From Chitinophaga sp. (GTDB taxonomy: Bacteria; Bacteroidota; Bacteroidia; Chitinophagales; Chitinophagaceae), in NCBI RefSeq assembly GCF_039596455.1, contig NZ_JBCNJR010000008.1:25508-89507 (forward strand): a stretch of DNA of 64,000 nucleotides. Direction: 5' to 3'. Under the pieces are notes generated by a model. The model was not told the DNA's origin, searched no databases, and saw only the letters and a program-made list of their open reading frames with translations. Below are positions 52,475 to 63,689 of the stretch, piece by piece. Position 1 is the stretch's first letter, and the number at the start of each line of letters is the position of its first letter. Both the position numbers and the translations under genes were made by a program.

Positions 52475-53389
52475 ATGCAACCCATTGTGATAGAAAACGT
52501 ACACAAGAGTTTTGGTGATGTAAAGGCCCTCCACAACATTTCTTTTGCGGTGGAAGAAGGGGAGCTGTTTGGCCTCATCGGGCCGGACGGCGCGGGAAAG
52601 TCTACCCTGTTCCGCATACTGGCCACACTGCTGCTGGCAGACAAGGGGAACGCCTTTGTGAACGGCCTGCATGTGGTGAAAGATTACAAGGCCATCCGCC
52701 GGCAGGTGGGTTATATGCCGGGGCGCTTCTCCCTCTACCAGGACCTCACCATTGAAGAGAACCTGAATTTCTTCGCCACTATTTTTAAAACCAGTGTGGA
52801 AGAGAATTATGATCTCATCAAAGACATCTACGATCAGATAGCGCCCTTCAAAAACCGTCCGGCAGGCAAACTTTCCGGCGGTATGAAACAGAAGCTCGCA
52901 CTGTGTTGCGCGCTGGTGCACAAACCAGCCGTGCTGTTCCTGGATGAGCCCACCACGGGCGTAGACCCCGTTTCCCGCAAAGAGTTCTGGGAAATGCTGC
53001 AGCGCCTGCGGCAGAAAGGCATCCCCATCCTCGTATCCACTCCTTACATGGATGAAGCTATGCTCTGCGACCGGGTTGCGCTGATCCAGAAAGGGGAGAT
53101 CATGCAGATCAACACGCCCGGCAACATCGTAAAAAGCTACGGCAAAAAGATATGGGCTATGCGGGCAGACAATATGTTCCGTCTCATACAAGACCTGCGG
53201 GCCTTTGAAGGAACAGACAGCTGTTTTGCCTTTGGGGAATACCTGCATGTAACGCTGCATGTACCCGTAGCAGCAGCGGAAGCCTACCTGGCCCCGTTGC
53301 AGCACGGCAACCTGGTGATCAAACCCGCGCAGCCCGGCATTGAAGATGCTTTCATGCAGCTGATGCAGGAACAAAATGAAACGGTATGA
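52475..53389 (+). CDS. ABC transporter ATP-binding protein (YbhF N-half-like)
   Basis: GPDGAGKS, LSGGMKQK, LDEPTTGVDP. Confidence 0.95.
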   Translation: MQPIVIENVHKSFGDVKALHNISFAVEEGELFGLIGPDGAGKSTLFRILATLLLADKGNAFVNGLHVVKDYKAIRRQVGYMPGRFSLYQDLTIEENLNFFATIFKTSVEENYDLIKDIYDQIAPFKNRPAGKLSGGMKQKLALCCALVHKPAVLFLDEPTTGVDPVSRKEFWEMLQRLRQKGIPILVSTPYMDEAMLCDRVALIQKGEIMQINTPGNIVKSYGKKIWAMRADNMFRLIQDLRAFEGTDSCFAFGEYLHVTLHVPVAAAEAYLAPLQHGNLVIKPAQPGIEDAFMQLMQEQNETV

Positions 53390-54135
53390 GCAAAGCTATC
53401 GTTACCCGCAACCTCACCAAACGTTTTGGCGATTTTATTGCCACCAACGCCATCACTTTTGAAGTGGAGCAGGGGGAAATATTCGGCTTCCTGGGGGCCA
53501 ACGGCGCCGGGAAAACCACCGCCATGCGCATGCTGTGCGGCTTGTTGAAACCTTCTTCCGGTGAAGCTACAGTAGCCGGCTTCAATATTTTCACACAGGC
53601 TGAGCAGGTAAAGCGGCGCATCGGCTATATGAGCCAGAAGTTCTCGCTTTACGAAGATCTGACGGTGAAAGAGAACATCCGCTTCTACGGCGGTATTTAT
53701 GGCCTGAGCCACCAGCAGATCAAAAGCAAAACGGAAGAGCTGCTGGGAAAGCTGCAGCTGCAAAAGGAGGCGGATCACCTGGTCAGCTCCCTGCCGCTGG
53801 GCTGGAAACAAAAATTGTCTTTTTCCATTGCCGTGCTGCACAACCCGTCTATTGTGTTCCTGGATGAGCCTACGGGCGGGGTAGACCCCATTACCCGGCG
53901 CCAGTTCTGGGACCTGATCTACGAAGCGGCAGACGGCGGCGTCACCATTTTCGTGACCACGCACTATATGGACGAAGCGGAGTATTGCAACCGCATTTCC
54001 ATTATGGTAGACGGCAGAATAAAAGCGCTGGACACGCCGGCCCGCCTGAAGGAACAATACCGGGCAGATTCCATGAACGAGGTGTTCCTTCAGCTGGCGC
54101 GCGCCAAACCGGCGGAAAACAATTCATCATCTTAA
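53386..54135 (+). CDS. ABC transporter ATP-binding protein (YbhF C-half-like)
   Basis: GANGAGKT, LPLGWKQK, LDEPTGGVDP. Confidence 0.95.
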   Translation: MSKAIVTRNLTKRFGDFIATNAITFEVEQGEIFGFLGANGAGKTTAMRMLCGLLKPSSGEATVAGFNIFTQAEQVKRRIGYMSQKFSLYEDLTVKENIRFYGGIYGLSHQQIKSKTEELLGKLQLQKEADHLVSSLPLGWKQKLSFSIAVLHNPSIVFLDEPTGGVDPITRRQFWDLIYEAADGGVTIFVTTHYMDEAEYCNRISIMVDGRIKALDTPARLKEQYRADSMNEVFLQLARAKPAENNSSS

Positions 54136-54144
54136 CTGACCATC

Positions 54145-55251
54145 ATGCGGGAGTTCTTCGTTTTTGTCCGAAAGGAATGTTATCATATTTTCCGTGACAG
54201 GCGCACCCTGCTCATCCTCTTCGGCATGCCCGTAGTGCTGATTGTGCTGTTCGGCTTTGCCATCACGAATGAGGTGCGCAATGTGAAAATAGCGGTGCTT
54301 GACCAGGCGCAGGATGCCTATAGCCGGCAGCTCACAGACCGCATCACCGCATCTGGGTATTTCACGGTAGACCGGTACCTGCATGCGGAGCAAGATATTG
54401 AGCCCGTTTTCAGGAAAGGGGAGGTGAAAATGGTGATGGTAGTACCGCCCAATTTCGGCCATAAATTTTACCACGGCCGCAAAGCGCCGCTGCAGCTGCT
54501 TACAGACGCATCAGATCCCAACACCGGCACCACGCTGGTGAATTACGCCAACGCCATCATTCTCCGGTACCAGCAGGAAATGACGGGGAAGATCACTTTG
54601 CCGCTCACCATTCAGCCGGAGGCCCGCATGATCTACAACCCCTCGCTGAAAAGCGTGTTCCTGTTCGTTCCCGGAGTAATGACGCTGATACTCATGCTGG
54701 TCTGCGCCATGATGACCTCTATCACCATCACCCGGGAAAAAGAGCTGGGCACCATGGAAATACTGCTGGTTTCTCCGCTGAAACCCGTTACCATCATAGC
54801 GGGCAAGGTGATACCCTACATCGCCCTTTCTTTCATTATTGCTCTTACCATATTGGCTATGGGTTTCTGGATATTCGGCATGCCCATCAGGGGCAGCCTG
54901 CTATTGTTGCTGCTGGAGTGTTTGCTGTTTTGCCTGGCCGCGCTTTCACTGGGCATCCTCATATCCAGCCTGACCAATTCCCAGCAAACGGCCATGATGA
55001 TCTCCATGATGGGCCTGCTGCTGCCTACCATACTGCTTTCCGGCTTTGTGTTCCCGCTGGAGAGTATGCCGAAGCCGCTGCAGATATTCGCCAATATTGT
55101 TCCGGCCAAGTGGTTCATCATTATTTTGAAAGATGTGATGCTCAAAGGCGCCGGCCTGCGCCAGGTATGGCAGCCCACGCTCATCCTGGGCGGCATGACG
55201 CTGTTCTTCCTGCTGGTGAGCGTTCGCAAATTTAAAACCCGCTTAAGCTGA
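54145..55251 (+). CDS. ABC-2 permease (YbhS-like)
   Basis: KECYHIFRD, REKELGTMEILLVSP, LLSGFVFP. Confidence 0.93.
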   Translation: MREFFVFVRKECYHIFRDRRTLLILFGMPVVLIVLFGFAITNEVRNVKIAVLDQAQDAYSRQLTDRITASGYFTVDRYLHAEQDIEPVFRKGEVKMVMVVPPNFGHKFYHGRKAPLQLLTDASDPNTGTTLVNYANAIILRYQQEMTGKITLPLTIQPEARMIYNPSLKSVFLFVPGVMTLILMLVCAMMTSITITREKELGTMEILLVSPLKPVTIIAGKVIPYIALSFIIALTILAMGFWIFGMPIRGSLLLLLLECLLFCLAALSLGILISSLTNSQQTAMMISMMGLLLPTILLSGFVFPLESMPKPLQIFANIVPAKWFIIILKDVMLKGAGLRQVWQPTLILGGMTLFFLLVSVRKFKTRLS

Positions 55252-56369
55252 TGCGTACCATCTTCTTCATATTGCAAAAAGAGTTCCTGCAGGTGTTCCG
55301 CAACCGCTCCATGCTGCCCATCATTTTTGTGGTGCCCGTGGTGCAGCTGCTGGTGCTGGCCTTTGCCGCCAATTACGAGATCAGGAACCTCTCTGTAGAC
55401 GTGGTGGATTACGACGGTTCCACCTGGAGCCGCCAGCTGCGTGACAAGCTGCTTTCTTCCGGTTATTTCACCCTGCACCGCCAGTCTTACAGCCACAAGG
55501 AAGCGTTTGAAGACCTGGAGGCCAACCGGGCAGACCTTGTGCTCACTATTCCCGCACATTTTGAGCGGGACCTGGTGCGGGAAAATGAGGCTAAAGTGCA
55601 GCTGCTCGTAAACGCCATCAACGGCAGCAAGGCCGGCCTGGCCTATGGCTACGCCGCCAGCATTATTGGCCAGTTCAACCGGCAGGTGCGCATGGACTGG
55701 CTGGCGCTGGATGAAGACGATGGTCCGGAGCATATAGACGTTACCTACCGCTACTGGTACAACCCCACGCTTAACTACAAGTTTTTTATGGTGCCTGGTA
55801 TACTGGTGGTGCTGGTTACCCTTATAGGCGCATTTTTATCCGGGATGAACATTGTGAAGGAAAAGGAAATTGGTACCATTGAGCAGCTGAACGTAACCCC
55901 CATCCGCAAGCATCATTTTATAATCGGCAAGCTATTGCCCTTCTGGATCATAGCCTTGTTTGAACTGGCCTTTGGCCTGACGGTGGGCAAGCTGGTGTTC
56001 AGCCTGCCCTTTGAAGGCAATATTGCCTGGGTGTTCCTTTTTGCGGCCGTGTACCTGCTGGTGATGCTGGGGCTGGGCCTGCTGATTTCCACCTTTACGG
56101 AAACGCAGCAGCAGAGCATGTTCATCACCTGGTTTTTCCTGATCATTTTTATCCTGATGAGCGGGCTGTTCACGCCCATAGAAAGCATGCCCGCATGGGC
56201 GCAAAAGCTTACGCTCATTAACCCCGTAGCTTATTTTGTAAAGGTGATCCGCATGGTGATGCAGAAGGGGAGCGGCTGGGCGGACATACAACATTATTTC
56301 GGCATCATGCTGCTGATGGCCGCCGTGGTCAATGGTGTGGCCGTATGGAACTACCGTAAAACGGTTTAG
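55251..56369 (+). CDS. ABC-2 permease (YbhR-like)
   Basis: KEFLQVFRN, KEKEIGTIEQLNVTP, LMSGLFTP. Confidence 0.93.
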   Translation: MRTIFFILQKEFLQVFRNRSMLPIIFVVPVVQLLVLAFAANYEIRNLSVDVVDYDGSTWSRQLRDKLLSSGYFTLHRQSYSHKEAFEDLEANRADLVLTIPAHFERDLVRENEAKVQLLVNAINGSKAGLAYGYAASIIGQFNRQVRMDWLALDEDDGPEHIDVTYRYWYNPTLNYKFFMVPGILVVLVTLIGAFLSGMNIVKEKEIGTIEQLNVTPIRKHHFIIGKLLPFWIIALFELAFGLTVGKLVFSLPFEGNIAWVFLFAAVYLLVMLGLGLLISTFTETQQQSMFITWFFLIIFILMSGLFTPIESMPAWAQKLTLINPVAYFVKVIRMVMQKGSGWADIQHYFGIMLLMAAVVNGVAVWNYRKTV

Positions 56370-56392: not shown

Positions 56393-56424
56393 GGCCGGGG
56401 CATTTTTGCCCTGGCCTTCTTTTT
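56393..56424. terminator. terminator between convergent permease and MocR genes
   Basis: GGCCGGGGC/GCCCTGGCC stem plus TTCTTTTT. Confidence 0.7.
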
Positions 56425-56425
56425 C

Positions 56426-57844
56426 TCACCGCAGCGCCTGGTGTACCAGCTTCCCGATGGTTTTTAACCCGTCATCCACCTGTTTGCTCCAGGGGTTGGC
56501 AAAGCTGATGCGAAGGCAGTTATTATACCTGTCCTGCAGGGAGAAGATGCGCCCGGGCGCAAAGCTGATCTTGCGTTTCATGGCCTGCTCGTACAGCTCA
56601 ATGGTGTTCACCTGCTGGTTCAGCTCCAGCCACAGCACATAGCCGCCCTGCGGGCGGGTTACACAGGTGTCTTCCGGAAAGTAGTCTGCTATGGCCTGCT
56701 GGTAGCGGAGGCATTGGGTGTGCAGCAGCGTGCGGATGTTGCGCAGGTGGTGCTCATAACGGCCGTTTTCTAAAAAGTGGCCAATGGCCGCCTGCGGCAG
56801 CGTAGCGCTGGAAACGGAGTGGTTCAGCTTGAGGCGGAGCACCTTGTCTTTGTACTTGCCCGGCATGATCCAGCCTACGCGGTAGCCCGGCGCCAGGGAT
56901 TTGGAGAAGGAGTTGCAGTAAAGCACGTTGCCGGTGCGGTCATACTGTTTGCAGCTGCTGGGGCGGGTTTTGCCGAAATAGGTATCCCCGTAAATATCGT
57001 CCTCTATCAGCGGAATGTCGTATTTGTTCATGAGGCGCACCAGCTCCCGTTTGTTTTTGTCTGGCATGCAGGAGCCGATGGGGTTGTTGAAGTTGGTAAC
57101 AAATACGCAAGCCTTTATTTTGAACTTGGGAATAGCTTTGTCAAGGTACTCCAGGTCTACGCCGCATACCGGGTTGGTAGGCACTTCCAGCACCTTCAGG
57201 CCCAGGCTTTCCGCCAGCTGGAAGGTGCCGCAATAGGCCGGGCTTTCCAGCGCAATGACGTCTCCCGGCTGCGTGGTGGCCGAGAGGCAGAGCGTTAAAG
57301 CGTCCATACAGCCTGTTGTGGTCACGATATCATCCTCTGTAATAGTACCGCCCCATTGCAGGCTGAGGCGGGCAATTTGCCGCCTTAAATTCACGTTGCC
57401 CTGCAGGTTCTCGTAACTGGTGCCGTTGGCGGGCAGGCTGCGCATGGCCTGTATAAGCGATTTGCTCAGTTTGGCGGCGGGCAGCTGGCTCTCATGCGGC
57501 GCGGCTACGGAAAAACGCAGCACGTCGTCAGGCGAAAGGTGGTAGAACACTTCGGTGATCATGTCACTCACGTTCACTTCCGTGGCCTTTTTTACCGGCC
57601 GGCTGATCTTGGGCATTTCCGGCAGGCGGCGCGGGGAAAAACGCACGTAATAGCCCGATTTGGGCCGCGGTTCAATGTAGCCCTTGCTTTCCAGGTGATA
57701 ATACGCCTGGAAAACAGTGCTCATGCTGATGCCCTGCTCCTTGCTGAGGGAGCGTACAGAAGGCAGTTTGTCGCCAATACGGATGACCTCTTTTTCGATC
57801 ATCGTTTGTATACGTTCCGCCACCTGCAGGTATAAATGGTCCAT
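56426..57844 (-). CDS. MocR/GabR family regulator (GntR HTH plus PLP aminotransferase domain)
   Basis: KLPSVRSLS...STVFQAY...KSGYYV HTH; IEDDIY, SFSKSLAPGYRVGW PLP-lysine motif. Confidence 0.95.
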   Translation of the reverse strand: MDHLYLQVAERIQTMIEKEVIRIGDKLPSVRSLSKEQGISMSTVFQAYYHLESKGYIEPRPKSGYYVRFSPRRLPEMPKISRPVKKATEVNVSDMITEVFYHLSPDDVLRFSVAAPHESQLPAAKLSKSLIQAMRSLPANGTSYENLQGNVNLRRQIARLSLQWGGTITEDDIVTTTGCMDALTLCLSATTQPGDVIALESPAYCGTFQLAESLGLKVLEVPTNPVCGVDLEYLDKAIPKFKIKACVFVTNFNNPIGSCMPDKNKRELVRLMNKYDIPLIEDDIYGDTYFGKTRPSSCKQYDRTGNVLYCNSFSKSLAPGYRVGWIMPGKYKDKVLRLKLNHSVSSATLPQAAIGHFLENGRYEHHLRNIRTLLHTQCLRYQQAIADYFPEDTCVTRPQGGYVLWLELNQQVNTIELYEQAMKRKISFAPGRIFSLQDRYNNCLRISFANPWSKQVDDGLKTIGKLVHQALR

Positions 57845-57859
57845 AACGCCAATTTTGTA

Positions 57860-57895
57860 CTGATATGGTCAAAATTACGGAAATGATATCTGTTT
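57860..57895. promoter_or_regulatory. putative MocR box 1 (CTGATATGGTCAAAATT-N11-ATCTGTTT)
   Basis: In the divergent mocR/dinB spacer; matching copy at 59815-59850. Confidence 0.75.
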
Positions 57896-57941
57896 GGCTG
57901 GAATTTCCTAATTTCATTTTTCATTTAACCTGATTGCCGCC

Positions 57942-58415
57942 ATGCCAAGATTACCATTTTCCGTAGACACCCGTTTCCGCACCCAGCACCTTTCCCTGGC
58001 TGAAATGACCGCCGATCTGCCGCAGGAGCACCTGCAGCGGGAAGTGCGCCCCGGCAAATGGACGGCGCTGGAGAACGCGGCGCACCTGGCGGTGTTCCAC
58101 CCCGTGTATATGCAGCGTTTTAAACGGATACTGGAGGAAGACGAGCCCGTGTTTGAACGCTATGTGTGGGAAAACGATCCCCTCTTCGCCCAATATAAAA
58201 ACGTACGCAATGCCGCACTGCTGGATGTTTACCGGAAAGACCGGGAGAGCATGATAGCGTTCATAGACGGGCTGGATGAAAAAGCGCTCCGCCGCCACGG
58301 TACACACCCTGCTTACGGGCGGTTTGACATCACACAGTGGGTGGAATTGTTCATCCTGCATGAAGCCCATCACCTGTTCACCATTTTCCAGCTGGTGCAT
58401 ACCAAATCATCATGA
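57942..58415 (+). CDS. DinB/YfiT family protein
   Basis: GKWTALENAAHL and HEAHHL metal-binding His motifs. Confidence 0.88.
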   Translation: MPRLPFSVDTRFRTQHLSLAEMTADLPQEHLQREVRPGKWTALENAAHLAVFHPVYMQRFKRILEEDEPVFERYVWENDPLFAQYKNVRNAALLDVYRKDRESMIAFIDGLDEKALRRHGTHPAYGRFDITQWVELFILHEAHHLFTIFQLVHTKSS

Positions 58416-59308
58416 TCACGCTACCCGTCACCGACTATAAACATTTCAACTTTGCCGAAAGCCTGCAGTTCCTCAACCGTTCCCCGCGGGAATGCCTGCA
58501 TTATGTACGGAACGGCGCCGTGTACAAGCTGCTGGCCCCCCGCGGCAATCCTGTGCTGCTGCGGATAACGGAAGCCGCCGGCCAGGAAGCACTGACCGCC
58601 GAAGTGCTGCAGGGAGCAATAGATGCTAACGGCGAAGCATATATCGAAAGCTACATTAACCGTTGGCTGCACCTGGATGGCAGCATGCGGCCCTTCTACC
58701 GTTTTGCCGCCACGGATGCCCTGTTGGGCCCGCTGGTAGAGGAGTTCAGCGGGCTGCGGCTGGTGGGCATACCAGATCTTTTTGAGGCCATCACCTGGAC
58801 CATCACCGGCCAGCAGATCAACCTGGCTTTTGCCTATACCATGAAGCAGCGGCTGGTGCAGGCCTTCGGGCATGCGGTAGAATGGGAGGGAGGCACGTAT
58901 TACCTCTATCCGCACCCTGCCGTTATAGCCGTGCTGCGCCCTGAACACCTGATGCCCATGCAGTTTTCCCGCACCAAGGCAGAAGGCATCATCCGTATTG
59001 CACAGCTGATGGCCGGCGGGCATTTGAGTGAAGACATGCTGATGCAACTGCCGTATGAGCAGGCCCGTGATACCCTGTTGGCCATTAAAGGCATTGGCCC
59101 CTGGAGCGCCAATTATGTGCTCATGAAATTTGCGCAGCACCCGCAGGCATTGCCGCTGGAAGACGCCGGCCTGCACAATGCCCTGCGCCGCCGCCTGGGT
59201 CTGCCCGCCAAACCCGGCATACAGGAAGTAAAAAACATTACCCAACACTGGCAAAACCATGCAGCATATGCCACCTTCTACTGCTGGCGTTCCCTCTACG
59301 CCAAATGA
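58412..59308 (+). CDS. alkA: DNA-3-methyladenine glycosylase II (AlkA-like, no Ada domain)
   Basis: FEAITWTITGQQI, HhH motif LLAIKGIGPWSANY, D in PLED. Confidence 0.9.
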   Translation: MITLPVTDYKHFNFAESLQFLNRSPRECLHYVRNGAVYKLLAPRGNPVLLRITEAAGQEALTAEVLQGAIDANGEAYIESYINRWLHLDGSMRPFYRFAATDALLGPLVEEFSGLRLVGIPDLFEAITWTITGQQINLAFAYTMKQRLVQAFGHAVEWEGGTYYLYPHPAVIAVLRPEHLMPMQFSRTKAEGIIRIAQLMAGGHLSEDMLMQLPYEQARDTLLAIKGIGPWSANYVLMKFAQHPQALPLEDAGLHNALRRRLGLPAKPGIQEVKNITQHWQNHAAYATFYCWRSLYAK

Positions 59309-59321
59309 GTACGCGCTCAGC

Positions 59322-59768
59322 ATGCGTTCTCCCGTAGGCCGCCTGCTTGTCAGGGGTACAGCGGAATATATCAGCGCCGTATTGTTCACGGATGACGGGG
59401 AGGAGAGTGCGGATGCCCCGCCTTTGCTGCATGAATGCATCCGCCAGCTGCAGGAATATTTCGGGAAACAACGCCGCGTTTTTGAACTGCCCCTGCAACA
59501 ACCCGGCACGCCTTTCCAGCAAACGGTATGGCATCAGCTCACCACCATTCCTTTTGGTGAAACTATCACCTACCTGGCCCTCGCAAAAAGGGTAGGCAAT
59601 GTTAAAAGCATCCGCGCCGTAGGTACTACCAATGGCAAGAACAACCTGGCCATCATAGTGCCCTGCCACCGCGTGATTGGCAGTGGTGGCGAACTTACCG
59701 GTTATGCCGGTGGCTTATGGCGTAAACAGTGGCTGCTGGACCATGAGCGCGGCGGCCTGCTCTTCTGA
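59322..59768 (+). CDS. ogt: methylated-DNA--protein-cysteine methyltransferase
   Basis: GTPFQQTVW, IPFGETITY, RAVGTTNGKN, PCHRV active site, GYAGG; start uncertain. Confidence 0.93.
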   Translation: MRSPVGRLLVRGTAEYISAVLFTDDGEESADAPPLLHECIRQLQEYFGKQRRVFELPLQQPGTPFQQTVWHQLTTIPFGETITYLALAKRVGNVKSIRAVGTTNGKNNLAIIVPCHRVIGSGGELTGYAGGLWRKQWLLDHERGGLLF

Positions 59769-59814
59769 ATGACGAACCGCATTCGTCACGGATCACGGTT
59801 GCTTGTCAACCCAT

Positions 59815-59850
59815 CTGATATGGTCAAAATTTACAAAACTGAATCTGTTT
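59815..59850. promoter_or_regulatory. putative MocR box 2
   Basis: CTGATATGGTCAAAATT-N11-ATCTGTTT, same spacing as box 1; upstream of the decarboxylase. Confidence 0.75.
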
Positions 59851-59909
59851 TTTTATACAGAAAAGCTTGAATTTTGTGTTGTCAAATTGAGACCTAACAA
59901 CCGCGAACC

Positions 59910-61337
59910 ATGAACGCAACATTCCGCCACGACCTCTTACAGTTGAATGAACTGCTTTCCCAAACAGCCGCTTATGCGGGCGGTTTCCTCTCCCGGATCA
60001 ACGAGCTGAAAGTGAGTTTGCCGGTACCGGCCTTCCCGGCTACGGTACTGCCGGAAAAAGGCATGGGCGCCGCTGCTGCGCTGGAGCATTTTGACAACCG
60101 TTTTGGTGATTACCTCACCGGCAACGCCGGCCCCCGCTACTTCGGTTTTGTGACCGGCGGCGTTACGCCTGCGGCCCTGGCCGGGGATTGGCTTGCCAGT
60201 ACTATTGATATGAACCCGGCAGACAAGTCCGCCGTGTCTTTCCATATAGAAACCGAAACACTTGACCTGCTGAAACAATTGTTCGGCCTGCCGGAAGAGT
60301 TCCTGGGCTGTTTTGTGAGCGGGGCCACCATGTCCAATTTTACAGGACTGGCCGCCGCGCGGCAGTGGCTGGGCAGGCAGCAGGGAGTGGATGTAGATAC
60401 TGCCGGCGCAGGTGCACTGAAAGACGTAAAGGTATTGGCCGCCACGCCTCATTCCAGCATTGCCAAAGCATTATCCATGCTGGGCCTGGGCCGCAACGCC
60501 CTGGTGAAGCTGCCCACGTTGCCGGAGCGGGAAGCGGTAGATATCAACGCATTGAAAGCCTGGATAGCCGCGCACCCCGGCGAGCCCTTCATTTACGTGG
60601 CCAGTGCAGGCACGGTGAACACGGTAGACTTTGACGATATAGCCGCCATTGCGGAACTGAAAAAAGAACATGCTTTCTGGTTGCATGTAGACGCCGCTTT
60701 CGGCGGGTTTGCGGCCGCCAGTCCGAGATATAAACACCTGCTGCGCGGGTGGGAAGCGGCAGACAGCGTTACCATAGACGCCCATAAGTGGCTCAACGTG
60801 CCGTACGATGCGGCCATGATATTCACCCGTCATCCCTTGCTGCAGCTGGCCGTGTTCCAGAACGCGGGCGCAGCTTATCTGGGAGACCCCTCACAGCATT
60901 TCAATTACATCAACTACGCACCGGAAAACTCACGCCGCCTGCGCTCACTGCCCGCCTGGTTTTCACTGAAGGCTTACGGGGCCGAAGGTTACAGGGATAT
61001 GGTGGAAGAGAACATACGGCTGGCCCAGCAACTGGGCGAACGCATCCGCAAAAGCGAACGTTTCCGCCTGCTGGCGCCCGTGCGCCTCTGCGTGGTATGT
61101 TTTACGCTGAGCCATGAAAAACGAATGCTGGCGGAGCATGTACAACTGTTCCTGCAAAAACTCAATATGCGGGGCGTGGTATATGTAACGCCTACCCAAT
61201 ACCAGGGGCTGCCGGCTTTAAGGGCGGCGCTGGTCAACTGGCGGACTACAGACCAGGACATTGACAAGGTGATGGACGAACTGGAAACCGTTGCTGCTGA
61301 AATAGCCCATCTTTCCGCCATCCTGGAGAATAATTGA
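59910..61337 (+). CDS. group II PLP-dependent amino-acid decarboxylase (DDC/GAD family)
   Basis: PRYFGFVTGG, SGATMSN, AGTVNT, WLHVDAAFGG, DAHKWLNVPY. Confidence 0.92.
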   Translation: MNATFRHDLLQLNELLSQTAAYAGGFLSRINELKVSLPVPAFPATVLPEKGMGAAAALEHFDNRFGDYLTGNAGPRYFGFVTGGVTPAALAGDWLASTIDMNPADKSAVSFHIETETLDLLKQLFGLPEEFLGCFVSGATMSNFTGLAAARQWLGRQQGVDVDTAGAGALKDVKVLAATPHSSIAKALSMLGLGRNALVKLPTLPEREAVDINALKAWIAAHPGEPFIYVASAGTVNTVDFDDIAAIAELKKEHAFWLHVDAAFGGFAAASPRYKHLLRGWEAADSVTIDAHKWLNVPYDAAMIFTRHPLLQLAVFQNAGAAYLGDPSQHFNYINYAPENSRRLRSLPAWFSLKAYGAEGYRDMVEENIRLAQQLGERIRKSERFRLLAPVRLCVVCFTLSHEKRMLAEHVQLFLQKLNMRGVVYVTPTQYQGLPALRAALVNWRTTDQDIDKVMDELETVAAEIAHLSAILENN

Positions 61338-61431
61338 TTTAGAGGTTGATATTAGTAAAGGCGGCGGGTATCCACCCGTTGCTCGTTTTAACCTTGCCTT
61401 CTGTGAAGGAGCACCATATCAAAAACAAGTC

Positions 61432-62343
61432 ATGAAAAAGAACAACATAAACGCTTATGTGGCATTGGTAATAGTGAGCATCTTCTGGGGTACCACCTAC
61501 CTGGCCGCCAGAATAGGCGTACAACATATGCACGGCATGTTGCTGGCCGCCCTGCGGCAAACGGCCGCCGGCGTATTGCTCACAGGCTTCTTCCTGATAC
61601 GGGGGTACAAGCTGCCGGAGCTGCCTGTGCTTTCCCGGCTTTTTGTAATAGGCGTGCTCATGCTCTGCGGCAGCAACGGGCTCATGACCTGGGCCATGGC
61701 CTACATCCCCAGCGGCATGGGGGCCATTATAGCCGCTACTGTGCCTATCTGGATCACCATTTTCAGCTACTTCCTGGTACAGCGCACCAAAATAACGGTG
61801 CAGCTGGTGCTGGGCATGGTCATCGGTCTGCTGGGCATCGGCGGTATCTTTTGCGATCACATCAGGGAACTGATGGACCCGCAGTACCGCTTCGGCATTA
61901 TGCTCATCACCGCCGCCTGTGTGTTCTGGGCATTGGGCTCCGTGCTCACGGCCAAGTGGGCGCTGGGCGTCAACTACCTGTACGGCGCCGGTTTCCAGAT
62001 GTTGTTCAGCGGCATCGTGATGCTGGTCATTTCCCTGTTCATGGGCCAGGCGCTGCATATCAGCAGTTTTACCGGGGAACTGTGGGGCAGCCTGCTGTAC
62101 CTTATCTTCATCGGTTCCCTGCTGAGTTATTCCGCTTATGTATTCGCCCTGAACAATTTACCGCCTTCGCTCGTTTCCATTTATGCGTACATTAACCCTG
62201 TGGTGGCGGTAATTTTAGGCTGGCTCATACTCAGCGAAAAACTGAACTGGACAATTGGCGTTTCCTGCCTGGTAACCTTGCTGGGCGTATACCTCGTCAA
62301 CAACGCATTTAACAAGAATAAAAGTTATGAACGCAGCAAATGA
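61432..62343 (+). CDS. EamA/DMT family exporter
   Basis: About 10 TM helices; IFWGTTY, SIYAYINPVVAVILGW. Confidence 0.92.
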   Translation: MKKNNINAYVALVIVSIFWGTTYLAARIGVQHMHGMLLAALRQTAAGVLLTGFFLIRGYKLPELPVLSRLFVIGVLMLCGSNGLMTWAMAYIPSGMGAIIAATVPIWITIFSYFLVQRTKITVQLVLGMVIGLLGIGGIFCDHIRELMDPQYRFGIMLITAACVFWALGSVLTAKWALGVNYLYGAGFQMLFSGIVMLVISLFMGQALHISSFTGELWGSLLYLIFIGSLLSYSAYVFALNNLPPSLVSIYAYINPVVAVILGWLILSEKLNWTIGVSCLVTLLGVYLVNNAFNKNKSYERSK

Positions 62344-63262
62344 TGCAAGGGTGCTGGCCTGGCACCCTGACTATCAGCCTTACTTCGAGCAGTTCAACAA
62401 GGCGTGGATCACCCGCAACTATACGCTGGAGCCAATTGACCGCGCCGTGCTGGAACACCCGCAGGAGCACATCCTGGCGCATGGGGGAGACATTATTTTT
62501 GTGGCCCTGGGTAACGACATGGCCGGTACCGTGGCCTACAAGCAGGTAGACGAGAACACCGTGGAAATGACGAAGATGGCGGTAGACGATGCTTTCCAGG
62601 GCCGCAAGCTAGGCTGGCTGCTGGCAAAGACCATTATGGAACGCGCGGCGCTGGCTGGTTATACCCGCATGATACTGTACTCCAACACCAAACAGGCGGC
62701 CGCCGTGGCCATGTACCGCAAGCTGGGTTTTGAAGAAATGGAGCTGGAAAGCGGCGGCTATGAACGGTGCAATATCAAAATGGGCATTGACCTGCCAGCA
62801 CCGCCGTTAGCGGGGCTGGCCCGCGAGCTGCGCCATACAATTGCGCAGATGACGGAAAAGCTGCTGCGTTTTTCAGAAGAAGAGGCCGGCGCCCGGCCCT
62901 CCCCGGCCAAATGGAGCCGCAAGGAAATACTGGGCCACCTCATAGATTCCGCCGCCAACAATTACCCGCGCTTCATCCGCGCGCAGCATTCAGAATATTC
63001 CGAACTGCCCGGTTATAACCAGGACTTTTGGGTGGATGCCCGCCAATACCAGCACGAGCCCTGGCAGCAGCTGGTACTGCTCTGGAAAACGCTGAACCTG
63101 CACATTGCCGGGCTGCTGCCCCTCATACCTGCTGAAGCGCTGGGCCACATCTGCGTAATAGGCCCCGGCGCGCCGGTTACGCTGCAATACGTAGCGGAAG
63201 ATTACCTGCGGCACATACATCATCATCTCAACCAAATATTTCCTGTTCATGCAAATTATTAA
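62327..63262 (+). CDS. GNAT acetyltransferase-DinB fusion protein
   Basis: N-half: EMTKMAV, FQGRKLG, AMYRKLGF (GNAT). C-half: KWSRKEILGHLIDSA, RHIHHHL (DinB/YfiT). Confidence 0.85.
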   Translation: MNAANDARVLAWHPDYQPYFEQFNKAWITRNYTLEPIDRAVLEHPQEHILAHGGDIIFVALGNDMAGTVAYKQVDENTVEMTKMAVDDAFQGRKLGWLLAKTIMERAALAGYTRMILYSNTKQAAAVAMYRKLGFEEMELESGGYERCNIKMGIDLPAPPLAGLARELRHTIAQMTEKLLRFSEEEAGARPSPAKWSRKEILGHLIDSAANNYPRFIRAQHSEYSELPGYNQDFWVDARQYQHEPWQQLVLLWKTLNLHIAGLLPLIPAEALGHICVIGPGAPVTLQYVAEDYLRHIHHHLNQIFPVHANY

Positions 63263-63689
63263 AGCAAGCGCCAGCCACCTGGCTCCTTTGGCCGCTCTCT
63301 TCGACGCCTACCGGCAGCATTATGAGCAGGCGCCAGACCTGGAAGGCGCCAAAGCCTACCTGGCAGCGCGTTTCGAGAACAATGACAGTGTGATCTACGT
63401 AGCGGAAGCAGAAGGCCAGCTGCTGGGTTTCACGCAGCTCTACCCGGTGTTTTCTTCCATTGGTATGAAAAAGGCGTGGATATTGAACGACCTGTTCGTA
63501 GACCCGCAACACCGCCGCAAAGGCGCGGCCCGCAAGCTGATAGGGGCATCCAGGGAACTGGGGCAGGGAACGGACGCGCGGTACATTATGCTGCAAACGC
63601 ACATCACCAACACGCCGGCGCAGGCGCTATATGAAGATGAAGGGTTTAAGCGGGATGAGGAGTTTTACTATTATTATCTTTCCATTTAA
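63249..63689 (+). CDS. GNAT family N-acetyltransferase
   Basis: ILNDLFV, RRKGAA, AQALYEDEGF. Confidence 0.92.
   Translation: MQIIKASASHLAPLAALFDAYRQHYEQAPDLEGAKAYLAARFENNDSVIYVAEAEGQLLGFTQLYPVFSSIGMKKAWILNDLFVDPQHRRKGAARKLIGASRELGQGTDARYIMLQTHITNTPAQALYEDEGFKRDEEFYYYYLSI

Follow-up and report, generated by a model that had tools for sequence, protein, structure and literature searches.

A conserved direct-repeat element as a putative operator of a MocR-type regulator in a Chitinophaga locus that also holds DNA-alkylation repair genes

A 64,000-nucleotide stretch of a Chitinophaga sp. genome (contig NZ_JBCNJR010000008.1; hereafter the window, meaning the whole of that stretch, with positions counted from its first letter) includes a gene for a MocR-type regulator, a divergent dinB-alkA-ogt cluster with genes for DNA-alkylation repair and, downstream of this cluster, a decarboxylase operon. 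A 36-bp element is found twice in this locus, between mocR and dinB (copy 1) and upstream of the decarboxylase gene (copy 2). The full explanation that fits best, and that we consider likely from the comparison of sequences, is that this element is the operator of the adjacent MocR regulator, a pyridoxal 5'-phosphate (PLP)-dependent protein. Control of the decarboxylase, exporter and acetyltransferase operon by MocR is a strong conclusion and was already predicted in 2016. Control of dinB-alkA-ogt by MocR is plausible, with the chances on its two sides about equal; it would apply in the window's Chitinophaga lineage only and is best explained by operon fusion.

The repeated element and its promoters

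The 17-mer CTGATATGGTCAAAATT occurs only at positions 57860-57876 and 59815-59831 of the window, even with 3 mismatches tolerated (0.07 occurrences expected), and ATCTGTTT stands 11 nt past it in both copies. A loose composite of box A, 18-24 nt and CTGT also matched just these two positions in the 64 kb. The pair that a first-pass annotation of this DNA had pointed out, before dinB-alkA-ogt and before the decarboxylase gene, is therefore exact and unique in the window. The two copies and the promoter elements read next to them are:

57860-57895, plus strand: operator copy 1, a predicted MocR operator of 36 bp with box A CTGATATGG and box B ATCTGTTT
59813-59850 (core 59815-59850), plus strand: operator copy 2, a predicted MocR operator, ATCTGATATGGTCAAAATT-N11-ATCTGTTT
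57877-57870, minus strand: -7 box of mocR, TAATTTTG, inside copy 1; predicted mocR start near 57865
59869-59876, plus strand: -7 box of the decarboxylase operon, GAATTTTG; predicted start near 59881, serving the decarboxylase, eamA and the two GNAT genes
57909-57916, plus strand: candidate -7-like box on the dinB side, TAATTTCA; predicted dinB start near 57921
61413-61421, plus strand: ACCATATCA before eamA, judged to be a chance match

One genome per species was scanned for relatives of the window MocR, which gave 33 loci (L numbers below); the window proteins were mapped onto these loci and the motif was searched there. An alignment of 54 sites from about 30 loci gave the consensus (A)TCTGAT-N-TGGTCAAAA-N14-ATCTGTTT(T), that is, two direct ATCTG(A/T)T boxes 30-31 bp apart, a spacing that places both boxes on one face of the DNA. 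The copy upstream of mocR was found in every Chitinophaga locus with enough flanking sequence, and the copy upstream of the decarboxylase gene in every Chitinophaga locus with that gene. The more distant loci L034 and L035 have a single operator each, in the equivalent position upstream of the target operon, and the mocR-proximal copy is present in Puia and Flavitalea. Position, orientation and internal spacing of both copies are kept in about 30 loci whose flanks differ completely between clades. Boxes A and B are the most conserved columns of the alignment and lie outside the -7 boxes, and the motif is always accompanied by a mocR orthologue (including in L027, L028 and L035). MocR operators have been described as two to four repeated boxes, typically direct repeats two to three helical turns apart, in divergons and with autorepression (Suvorova & Rodionov 2016, PMC5320631). 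The element likewise consists of repeated direct boxes that adjoin the regulator gene and are kept among its orthologues.

The third MocR site claimed by the first-pass annotation, before eamA, did not hold up. ACCATATCA was found only in a 98%-identical relative (L001) and was absent from L002, L003 and all other loci; its reverse complement, TTGATATGGT, has a T where C is invariant in 54 of 54 aligned sites, and it has no box B.

Promoters were read with the Bacteroidetes sigma-A -7 consensus TAnnTTTG, as a sigma-70 promoter and terminator scan is uninformative for a Bacteroidetes genome; the -7 box spans -12 to -5 (PMC9723704). An nA(A/G)(T/A)TTTG box stands exactly 19 nt past the CTGTT of box B in all decarboxylase-side copies (28/28, including L034, L035 and C. 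pinensis). On the mocR side, a perfect reverse-strand TAnnTTTG lies within the operator at a fixed offset of 17 in 27 of the 27 copies matched by the scan; its pattern missed L002, L012, L013, L019 and L028, and the mocR-side sites of C. pinensis, C. filiformis and C. skermanii are variant. Copy 1 covers about -30 to +6 of the predicted mocR promoter, and the mocR -7 box embedded in it points to autoregulation. Copy 2 spans about -68 to -31 of the predicted decarboxylase promoter, which has no evident -33 element. Conserved position, orientation and promoter geometry in about 30 loci support the view that the motif is a MocR-type operator, as first proposed from the window alone; for the decarboxylase operon as a MocR target, the support comes from the conservation of copy 2 and from its promoter geometry, and mocR itself is likewise a predicted target.

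The regulator and the genes next to the two copies

Pfam and NCBIfam searches agreed with the initial calls of mocR, dinB, alkA, ogt, the decarboxylase, eamA and the GNAT genes:

56426-57844, minus strand: mocR, MocR/GabR-type regulator with a GntR winged helix-turn-helix and a fold-type-I aminotransferase-like domain (Pfam, NCBIfam)
57942-58415, plus strand: dinB, DinB_2/YfiT-like superfamily protein, first gene of dinB-alkA-ogt (Pfam DinB_2, E = 5e-17)
58412-59308, plus strand: alkA, AlkA-type 3-methyladenine DNA glycosylase, HhH-GPD (Pfam HhH-GPD)
59325-59768, plus strand: ogt, O6-alkylguanine-DNA alkyltransferase, with an alternative upstream start at 59259 (Pfam DNA_binding_1 and Methyltransf_1N)
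59910-61337, plus strand: group II PLP-dependent decarboxylase, aromatic-L-amino-acid-decarboxylase-like (Pfam Pyridoxal_deC, PF00282, E = 2e-51)
61432-62343, plus strand: eamA, EamA/DMT-family exporter, YedA-like (two Pfam EamA domains; NCBIfam YedA model, E = 5e-52)
62327-63262, plus strand: GNAT-DinB_2 fusion (Pfam Acetyltransf_1 at residues 45-135, DinB_2 at residues 170-304)
63249-63689, plus strand: second GNAT acetyltransferase, last gene of the decarboxylase operon (Pfam Acetyltransf_1, E = 7e-17)

The window MocR has the MocR/GabR domain architecture (GntR at residues 4-67, Aminotran_1_2 at residues 128-462) and is 98% identical to the MocR of C. alhagiae T22. Its best NCBIfam models are all MocR-like, and it scores below the equivalog cut-off of every one (PdxR 255 bits against 320, YczR 202 against 487, EhuR 184 against 480, GabR 130 against 600), so it is a member of the family but none of the named regulators GabR, PdxR, EhuR and MocR. 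The PLP-site segments SFSK, IEDDIY (DD..Y), NNP (NP) and LRISF align with the Pyrococcus aminotransferase 1x0m. By this alignment the protein is predicted to retain the Schiff-base lysine (in SFSK), the cofactor-contacting Asp and Asn and the C-terminal carboxylate-binding Arg.

The dinB product is a DinB_2/YfiT-like superfamily protein with a weak NCBIfam match to the YfiT bacillithiol-transferase model, and not DNA polymerase IV as its name could suggest. AlkA matches A. fulgidus AlkA (2jhj, 1.5e-15) and E. coli AlkA (1diz, 1.9e-13). Its segment GIGPWSANY...LPLEDAG aligns with A. fulgidus AlkA, keeping the catalytic Asp and the AlkA-type tryptophan and having no Ogg-type lysine; it also agrees with the E. 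coli AlkA motif. Against the NCBIfam AlkA equivalog the protein scores 67 (cut-off 229), a score that does not fix the substrate range of the predicted glycosylase. The Ogt translation includes IVPCHRVIG, with the PCHRV active site, and matches PF01035 (5.8e-33) and TIGR00589 (112, cut-off 46). The dinB stop overlaps the alkA start (ATGA, 58412-58415) and the gap between alkA and ogt is 16 nt (ogt starts 17 nt past the alkA stop), the two genes overlapping if the Ogt start is at 59259; dinB-alkA-ogt thus forms one operon with translational coupling.

The decarboxylase combines PF00282, a DAHKW PLP-lysine motif ((D/N)xHKW) and similarity to aromatic amino acid decarboxylases, its best PDB matches being DOPA decarboxylase (7xin, 3e-45) and the pyridoxal-dependent decarboxylases 4rit (2e-44) and 4obu (5e-42). 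A literature search returned no characterised Chitinophaga decarboxylase of this group II type. In C. rupis the DinB_2 half of the GNAT-DinB_2 fusion is a free-standing gene, 55% identical, and in both clade I and clade II the second GNAT gene closes the cluster.

Following the GabR paradigm, MocR bound to copy 1 would cover about -30 to +6 of its own promoter and repress mocR. Bound to copy 2, it would sit at about -68 to -31 of the decarboxylase promoter that lacks a -33 element, and would activate this promoter once an amino acid or amine had formed an external aldimine with its PLP. The operon would then decarboxylate a probably aromatic-type amino acid, N-acetylate the amine and export the product; with a decarboxylase, two GNAT proteins and a YedA-like exporter, decarboxylation followed by N-acetylation and export is the simplest scheme.

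Two further conserved elements flank the decarboxylase gene:

59770-59788, no strand: palindrome TGACGAA-N5-TTCGTCA, exactly 24 nt upstream of box A of copy 2
61338-61383, plus strand: 19-mer TTTAGAGGTTGATATTAGT and hairpin, directly after the decarboxylase stop

The palindrome is single-copy in the window and is found in 12 of 12 group-1 loci, where its 7-bp stem is invariant and its loop variable. Its 24-nt distance to box A does not change in loci whose ogt stop lies some 60 nt farther away, and no T-run follows it. The fixed spacing makes it look like the site of a second dimeric regulator and not a terminator; it could be such a site or a hairpin. Within TTTAGAGGTTGATATTAGT lies a tandem TTGAT(A)TTAG repeat; the 19-mer shows 100% identity among 12 group-1 loci and is missing from group-2 Chitinophaga. 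The 10-bp hairpin that follows it has arms that vary among loci with complementarity kept. A scan of positions 57700-61600 with Rfam, which covers this element, gave no match at E <= 1. In L004-L007 an extra GNAT gene is inserted just past TTTAGAGGTTGATATTAGT.

History of the locus and control of the repair genes

The contexts of more distant decarboxylase orthologues were also compared. In L035, a Bacteroidota assembly outside Chitinophaga (MocR 57% identical), one operator lies in a divergon between mocR and the genes eamA-GNAT-DUF1572 (DinB clan)-decarboxylase-aminotransferase-ADH. This single operator bears both promoter signatures, the reverse embedded TAnnTTTG for mocR and the forward -7 box 19 nt past box B. 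In L034, a Cytophagaceae genome, mocR is divergent from a DJ-1-decarboxylase pair, with one related site. Neither alkA nor ogt was found in the MocR loci of L034 or L035. In Chitinophaga, alkA-ogt lies between mocR and the decarboxylase gene, and each half of the divergon keeps one copy with its own promoter signature only. A divergon that was split by alkA-ogt, each half retaining an operator, explains the duplicated motif. MocR relatives of Flavitalea, Puia and Cyclobacterium (46-60% identity) are paired with IlvE-like aminotransferases and are uninformative on alkA and ogt.

Within Chitinophaga three arrangements were observed. In arrangement A (13 clade-I loci with the window, and C. skermanii), mocR is divergent from dinB-[alkA]-ogt, which is followed by copy 2 and the decarboxylase gene; alkA is missing in four clade-I loci (L008, L009, L012 and L013) and in C. 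skermanii. In arrangement B (C. pinensis, C. filiformis and C. rupis), a gene with an ArsR-type helix-turn-helix (HTH) and an Ada_Zn_binding domain leads the alkA-ogt operon. C. rupis has all parts: mocR1 divergent from dinB, mocR2 divergent from a carboxymuconolactone-decarboxylase (CMD) gene, the ada-like gene, alkA, ogt, copy 2 and the decarboxylase gene. In arrangement C (clade II), the second MocR paralogue faces a SnoaL-like/CMD pair; a long hairpin follows, and then alkA-ogt with a conserved promoter of its own, with no MocR box upstream of it. In a neighbour-joining tree of MocR and the decarboxylase, arrangement A falls on one side and B and C on the other, clade I and C. skermanii standing together. 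Conservation of the motif and the gene set among relatives, which the first-pass annotation had named as a check, gave a divided answer: the motif is kept in about 30 loci, and alkA and ogt are absent from the orthologous MocR loci compared outside Chitinophaga and variably arranged within it.

The second MocR paralogue, mocR2, adjoins mocR1 in L014-L026 (e.g. L020 6487-7920) and in C. rupis (L042 2387-3814). Its product is 43-46% identical to MocR1 (44% for clade II), and the C. rupis and clade-II proteins are 57% identical. The two genes are in tandem in clade II and have dinB between them in C. rupis, and mocR2 faces the SnoaL-like and CMD (AhpD-like) pair in the former and the CMD gene alone in the latter. 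The mocR2 operator, CTGTTATGG-N-CTGTATCTGTTTTGG, is closely similar to that of MocR1, and cross-talk between MocR1 and MocR2 would be possible. In C. polysaccharea CSUR P9684 (L022) the mocR2 and mocR1 operators are intact and no alkA, ogt or decarboxylase gene lies within 6.5 kb upstream, unlike in L026 of the same species; the target operon of L022 has apparently moved or been lost.

The pairing of mocR with a divergent dinB is kept in clade I, C. skermanii and C. rupis, and the window lineage carries a real, old fusion of alkA-ogt to dinB, this conserved divergent partner of mocR. In other Chitinophagaceae, dinB homologues are flanked by a radical-SAM/SPASM gene on one side and a MarR gene on the other, and mocR, alkA and ogt are absent there. 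By BLAST the window DinB resembles neither the DinB_2 half of the GNAT fusion nor L035's DUF1572 protein. Given this other context and the lack of similarity to the DinB domains of the regulon, we rejected dinB as a gene of a repair module or of an ancestral regulon beyond the genus.

As the first-pass annotation had stated, the window has no ada gene: a six-frame translation of its 64 kb includes no Ada zinc motif (CxPSC...CxxC), and tblastn with the Chitinophaga Ada-like protein found no match there. The 97-bp region between mocR and dinB includes only the MocR operator and neither an A-rich tract with GCAA nor a TTGCGCAA element of the sort that clade II, C. pinensis, C. filiformis and C. 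rupis carry in front of alkA or the ada-like gene. Both an Ada_Zn_binding sensor gene and an Ada-box-like operator at the repair operon are thus missing from the window. The Ada-like genes are:

L036 6836-7366: Ada-like gene of C. pinensis
L041 3562-4092: Ada-like gene of C. filiformis
L042 4657-5187: Ada-like gene of C. rupis

Their 176-aa product has an ArsR-type HTH (HTH_5/HTH_20) at its N-terminus and an Ada_Zn_binding domain at its C-terminus; the genes head the alkA-ogt operon and are preceded by repeated TTGCGCAA/TTGCATAA palindromes. Only about 38 full-length relatives were found, all generically named, in Chitinophaga and one Saprospiraceae metagenome-assembled genome. No named group-1 species is among these homologues, few of which carry organism names. 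From its domains the protein appears to be an uncharacterised non-AraC sensor-regulator of the Ada type. In clade II (L014-L026) the alkA promoter lies about 50 nt upstream of alkA (e.g. L020 5370-5420, reverse strand) and consists of an A-rich tract and GCAAGAA(T/A)C about 30 nt upstream of a TAnnTTTG box. With only about 5 nt between the end of this box and the ATG, the alkA transcript may be leaderless or nearly so. The GCAAGAA(T/A)C element bears a faint likeness to an Ada box.

In the window, copy 1 ends 46 bp before the dinB ATG. With only 46 bp between box B and the ATG, any dinB promoter would overlap the operator, which makes an influence of MocR plausible; and as the sole upstream space of dinB-alkA-ogt is the 97-bp region with copy 1, MocR occupancy should affect the operon. 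For clade I and C. skermanii, a dinB promoter placed anywhere in this region would have its -33 part overlapping box B. MocR would probably modulate the repair genes through the operon fusion and not as part of an ancestral, purpose-built regulon. The first-pass claim that MocR controls alkylation repair thus keeps its local part, since copy 1 fills the only space upstream of dinB-alkA-ogt and the pairing of mocR and dinB is kept, and loses its general one, a designed regulon, since alkA-ogt is differently controlled in relatives.

Several points weigh against the account of operator, activation and fusion given here. The TAATTTCA box of clade I is a poorer match and lies 5 nt nearer box B than the box in all decarboxylase promoters, and the dinB-side -7-like box is not conserved in L008-L013. 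Whether MocR activates or represses is read from the analogy with GabR. The decarboxylase scores far under the cut-off in all NCBIfam equivalog models, and the palindrome upstream of copy 2 suggests an additional regulator of its promoter. The tree is a simple neighbour-joining tree of two proteins. Among sequencing runs, only DNA and metagenome ones contained the region.

One alternative is that copy 1 is an autoregulatory operator of mocR only, the dinB-alkA-ogt genes being constitutive or otherwise regulated and neutral passengers in the split divergon. In its favour, copy 1 lacks the -7 box at +19 of the decarboxylase promoters and keeps only the box facing mocR, the clade-II copy 1 precedes mocR1 with no divergent target, and alkA-ogt is independently controlled in the sister group. 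However, within the 97 bp upstream of dinB, with the operator ending 46 bp from the ATG, RNA polymerase and MocR must share DNA. At the C. rupis site between mocR1 and dinB, the TTTG of a forward -7-like box is placed as in every decarboxylase-side copy, and a TA(A/T)TTTCA box 13-16 nt past box B is kept in most of clade I. We regard autoregulation alone as doubtful, though still worth serious weight.

A second alternative is a purpose-built regulon: MocR would sense a genotoxin that resembles an amino acid, or the precursor of one, would co-induce detoxification by thiol transferase and acetyltransferase, export and alkylation repair, and would take the place of Ada here; candidate signals are diazo or nitroso amino acids and nitrosated amines from the decarboxylase product. 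The fusion of dinB-(alkA)-ogt at a MocR operator has persisted in the window, 13 clade-I loci and C. skermanii, which form a deep group; and although the upstream arrangement takes three forms, nearly all Chitinophaga loci with sufficient flanking sequence have alkA or ogt between mocR and the decarboxylase gene. The missing Ada-type gene in the 64 kb fits such a regulon, as does the lack of named group-1 species among the Ada-like homologues (few of which are named). The locus also has two DinB-superfamily proteins, a superfamily that includes thiol S-transferases acting on electrophiles, and there is a precedent: a COG350 (Ada/Ogt) gene is among the predicted targets of PdxR3, a MocR-family regulator in Nocardia and Rhodococcus. 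These points are outweighed by others. Orthologous MocR regulons outside Chitinophaga lack alkA and ogt, and the sister group controls alkA-ogt by an Ada_Zn_binding regulator gene or a promoter of its own, with no MocR box. Dispensability of alkA (L008, L009, L012, L013 and C. skermanii), the radical-SAM/MarR context of DinB homologues elsewhere, and copy 1 without the +19 box of every decarboxylase-side copy, its dinB-side box being nearer and not conserved in L008-L013, all count against it. So does a literature search in which no paper tied alkylation repair to a MocR regulator.

Linkage, even when conserved, says little by itself about shared function, as functionally unrelated ABC-transporter genes are equally syntenic. 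An ABC-2-type exporter operon (an ATPase and two ABC-2 permeases) lies at 53386-56369 of the window, convergent with mocR, with a bidirectional terminator-like hairpin at 56393-56416; it is syntenic with mocR across most of the genus. We consider a purpose-built regulon improbable, and the sensing of an amino-acid-like genotoxin speculative and similarly unlikely. A variant of the fusion account is that alkA-ogt of clade I and C. skermanii lost its Ada-type sensor and was captured by the MocR operator, giving a metabolite-gated, non-Ada adaptive response; we hold it to be a long shot. Equally slim is the chance that, after such a capture, Ogt and AlkA would be induced by an amino acid or amine and not by DNA methylation. 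This could provide pre-emptive protection against alkylating species (nitrosated amines, or amino acids with diazo or nitroso groups) that arise from the substrate of the decarboxylase or from its product.

Finally, it is very improbable that the pair is a neutral remnant left by gene conversion or by a recent duplication within the locus, or that it consists of mere promoter elements and no operator: the 17-mer is identical in both window copies and CAAAATT is the reverse complement of a -7 box, but both copies persist in about 30 species with unalignable flanks, copies within one genome differ by 2-3 bases elsewhere (e.g. L002, L004) and so give no sign of ongoing gene conversion, the most conserved boxes lie outside the -7 boxes, and the motif never occurs without a mocR orthologue. 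On the persistence in about 30 species and the differences within genomes elsewhere, we rejected an origin of the pair by recent duplication or conversion.

Comparison with known systems

The closest known system is the Bacteroidetes MocR regulog 'Cpin_4810' (PMC5320631), which includes Cpin_2921 (C. pinensis), Dfer_1184 (Dyadobacter) and M23134_05128 (Microscilla). Cpin_2921 was predicted to regulate COG697 (RhaT/EamA) and COG76 (a GadB-type decarboxylase), Dfer_1184 to regulate COG697, COG76 and PF07609 (DinB clan), and the Microscilla member to regulate COG76 (PMC5320631). The window MocR belongs to the same orthologous group, being 69% identical to the C. pinensis protein beside the same genes, and the decarboxylase, RhaT/EamA and DinB-clan targets are those of the window operon. 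The tables of PMC5320631 differ in having no AlkA entry ('AlkA', 'glycosylase') and no COG350 for this regulog, and in C. pinensis itself alkA-ogt is headed by an Ada-like regulator gene. That regulog description includes neither the splitting of the divergon nor the fixed geometry of the promoters nor, for the window lineage, the fusion of dinB with alkA-ogt. As the 2016 prediction covers most of the regulon, the core regulon is not new and the increment is modest. The locus offers clean operator and promoter geometry for a Bacteroidetes MocR regulator, defines an uncharacterised decarboxylase-acetyltransferase-exporter module and points to an unstudied regulator with ArsR-HTH and Ada zinc domains in relatives. 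If MocR does gate alkA-ogt, a DNA-repair operon would have been rewired from damage sensing (Ada) to metabolite sensing; this would have occurred by simple deletion and operon fusion, with intermediates preserved in sister species and C. rupis having all the parts.

GabR of Bacillus subtilis shares the domain architecture and a direct-repeat operator about three helical turns long. Its divergon, autorepression and effector- and PLP-dependent activation (PMC5320631) have a counterpart in the window that is predicted from sequence. In contrast, the GabR box is ATACCA and the window box ATCTGWT, the window promoters are of the Bacteroidetes -7 (TAnnTTTG) kind, the GabR target is a GABA aminotransferase and not a decarboxylase, exporter and acetyltransferase set, and the window operator is present in two separated copies. 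At gabT the GabR operator reportedly lies at about -63 to -27 (Belitsky, 2004), close to the -68 to -31 at the window decarboxylase.

For PdxR3 of the Nocardiaceae, also of the MocR family, comparative genomics predicted control of a gene from the alkyltransferase family, COG350 (Ada/Ogt) being listed under this unrelated MocR group in Nocardia and Rhodococcus (PMC5320631). It belongs to another orthologous group and phylum, has no AlkA and no decarboxylase operon, and its regulon is likewise a prediction.

The Ada response (E. coli Ada; B. subtilis AdaA/AdaB-AlkA) resembles the window in having an AlkA-type glycosylase and an O6-alkylguanine alkyltransferase in one operon. Unlike these systems, the window lacks Ada, an Ada zinc domain and any Ada-box-like sequence, and upstream of alkA-ogt the relatives C. 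pinensis, C. filiformis and C. rupis carry the fusion of an ArsR HTH and Ada_Zn_binding instead.

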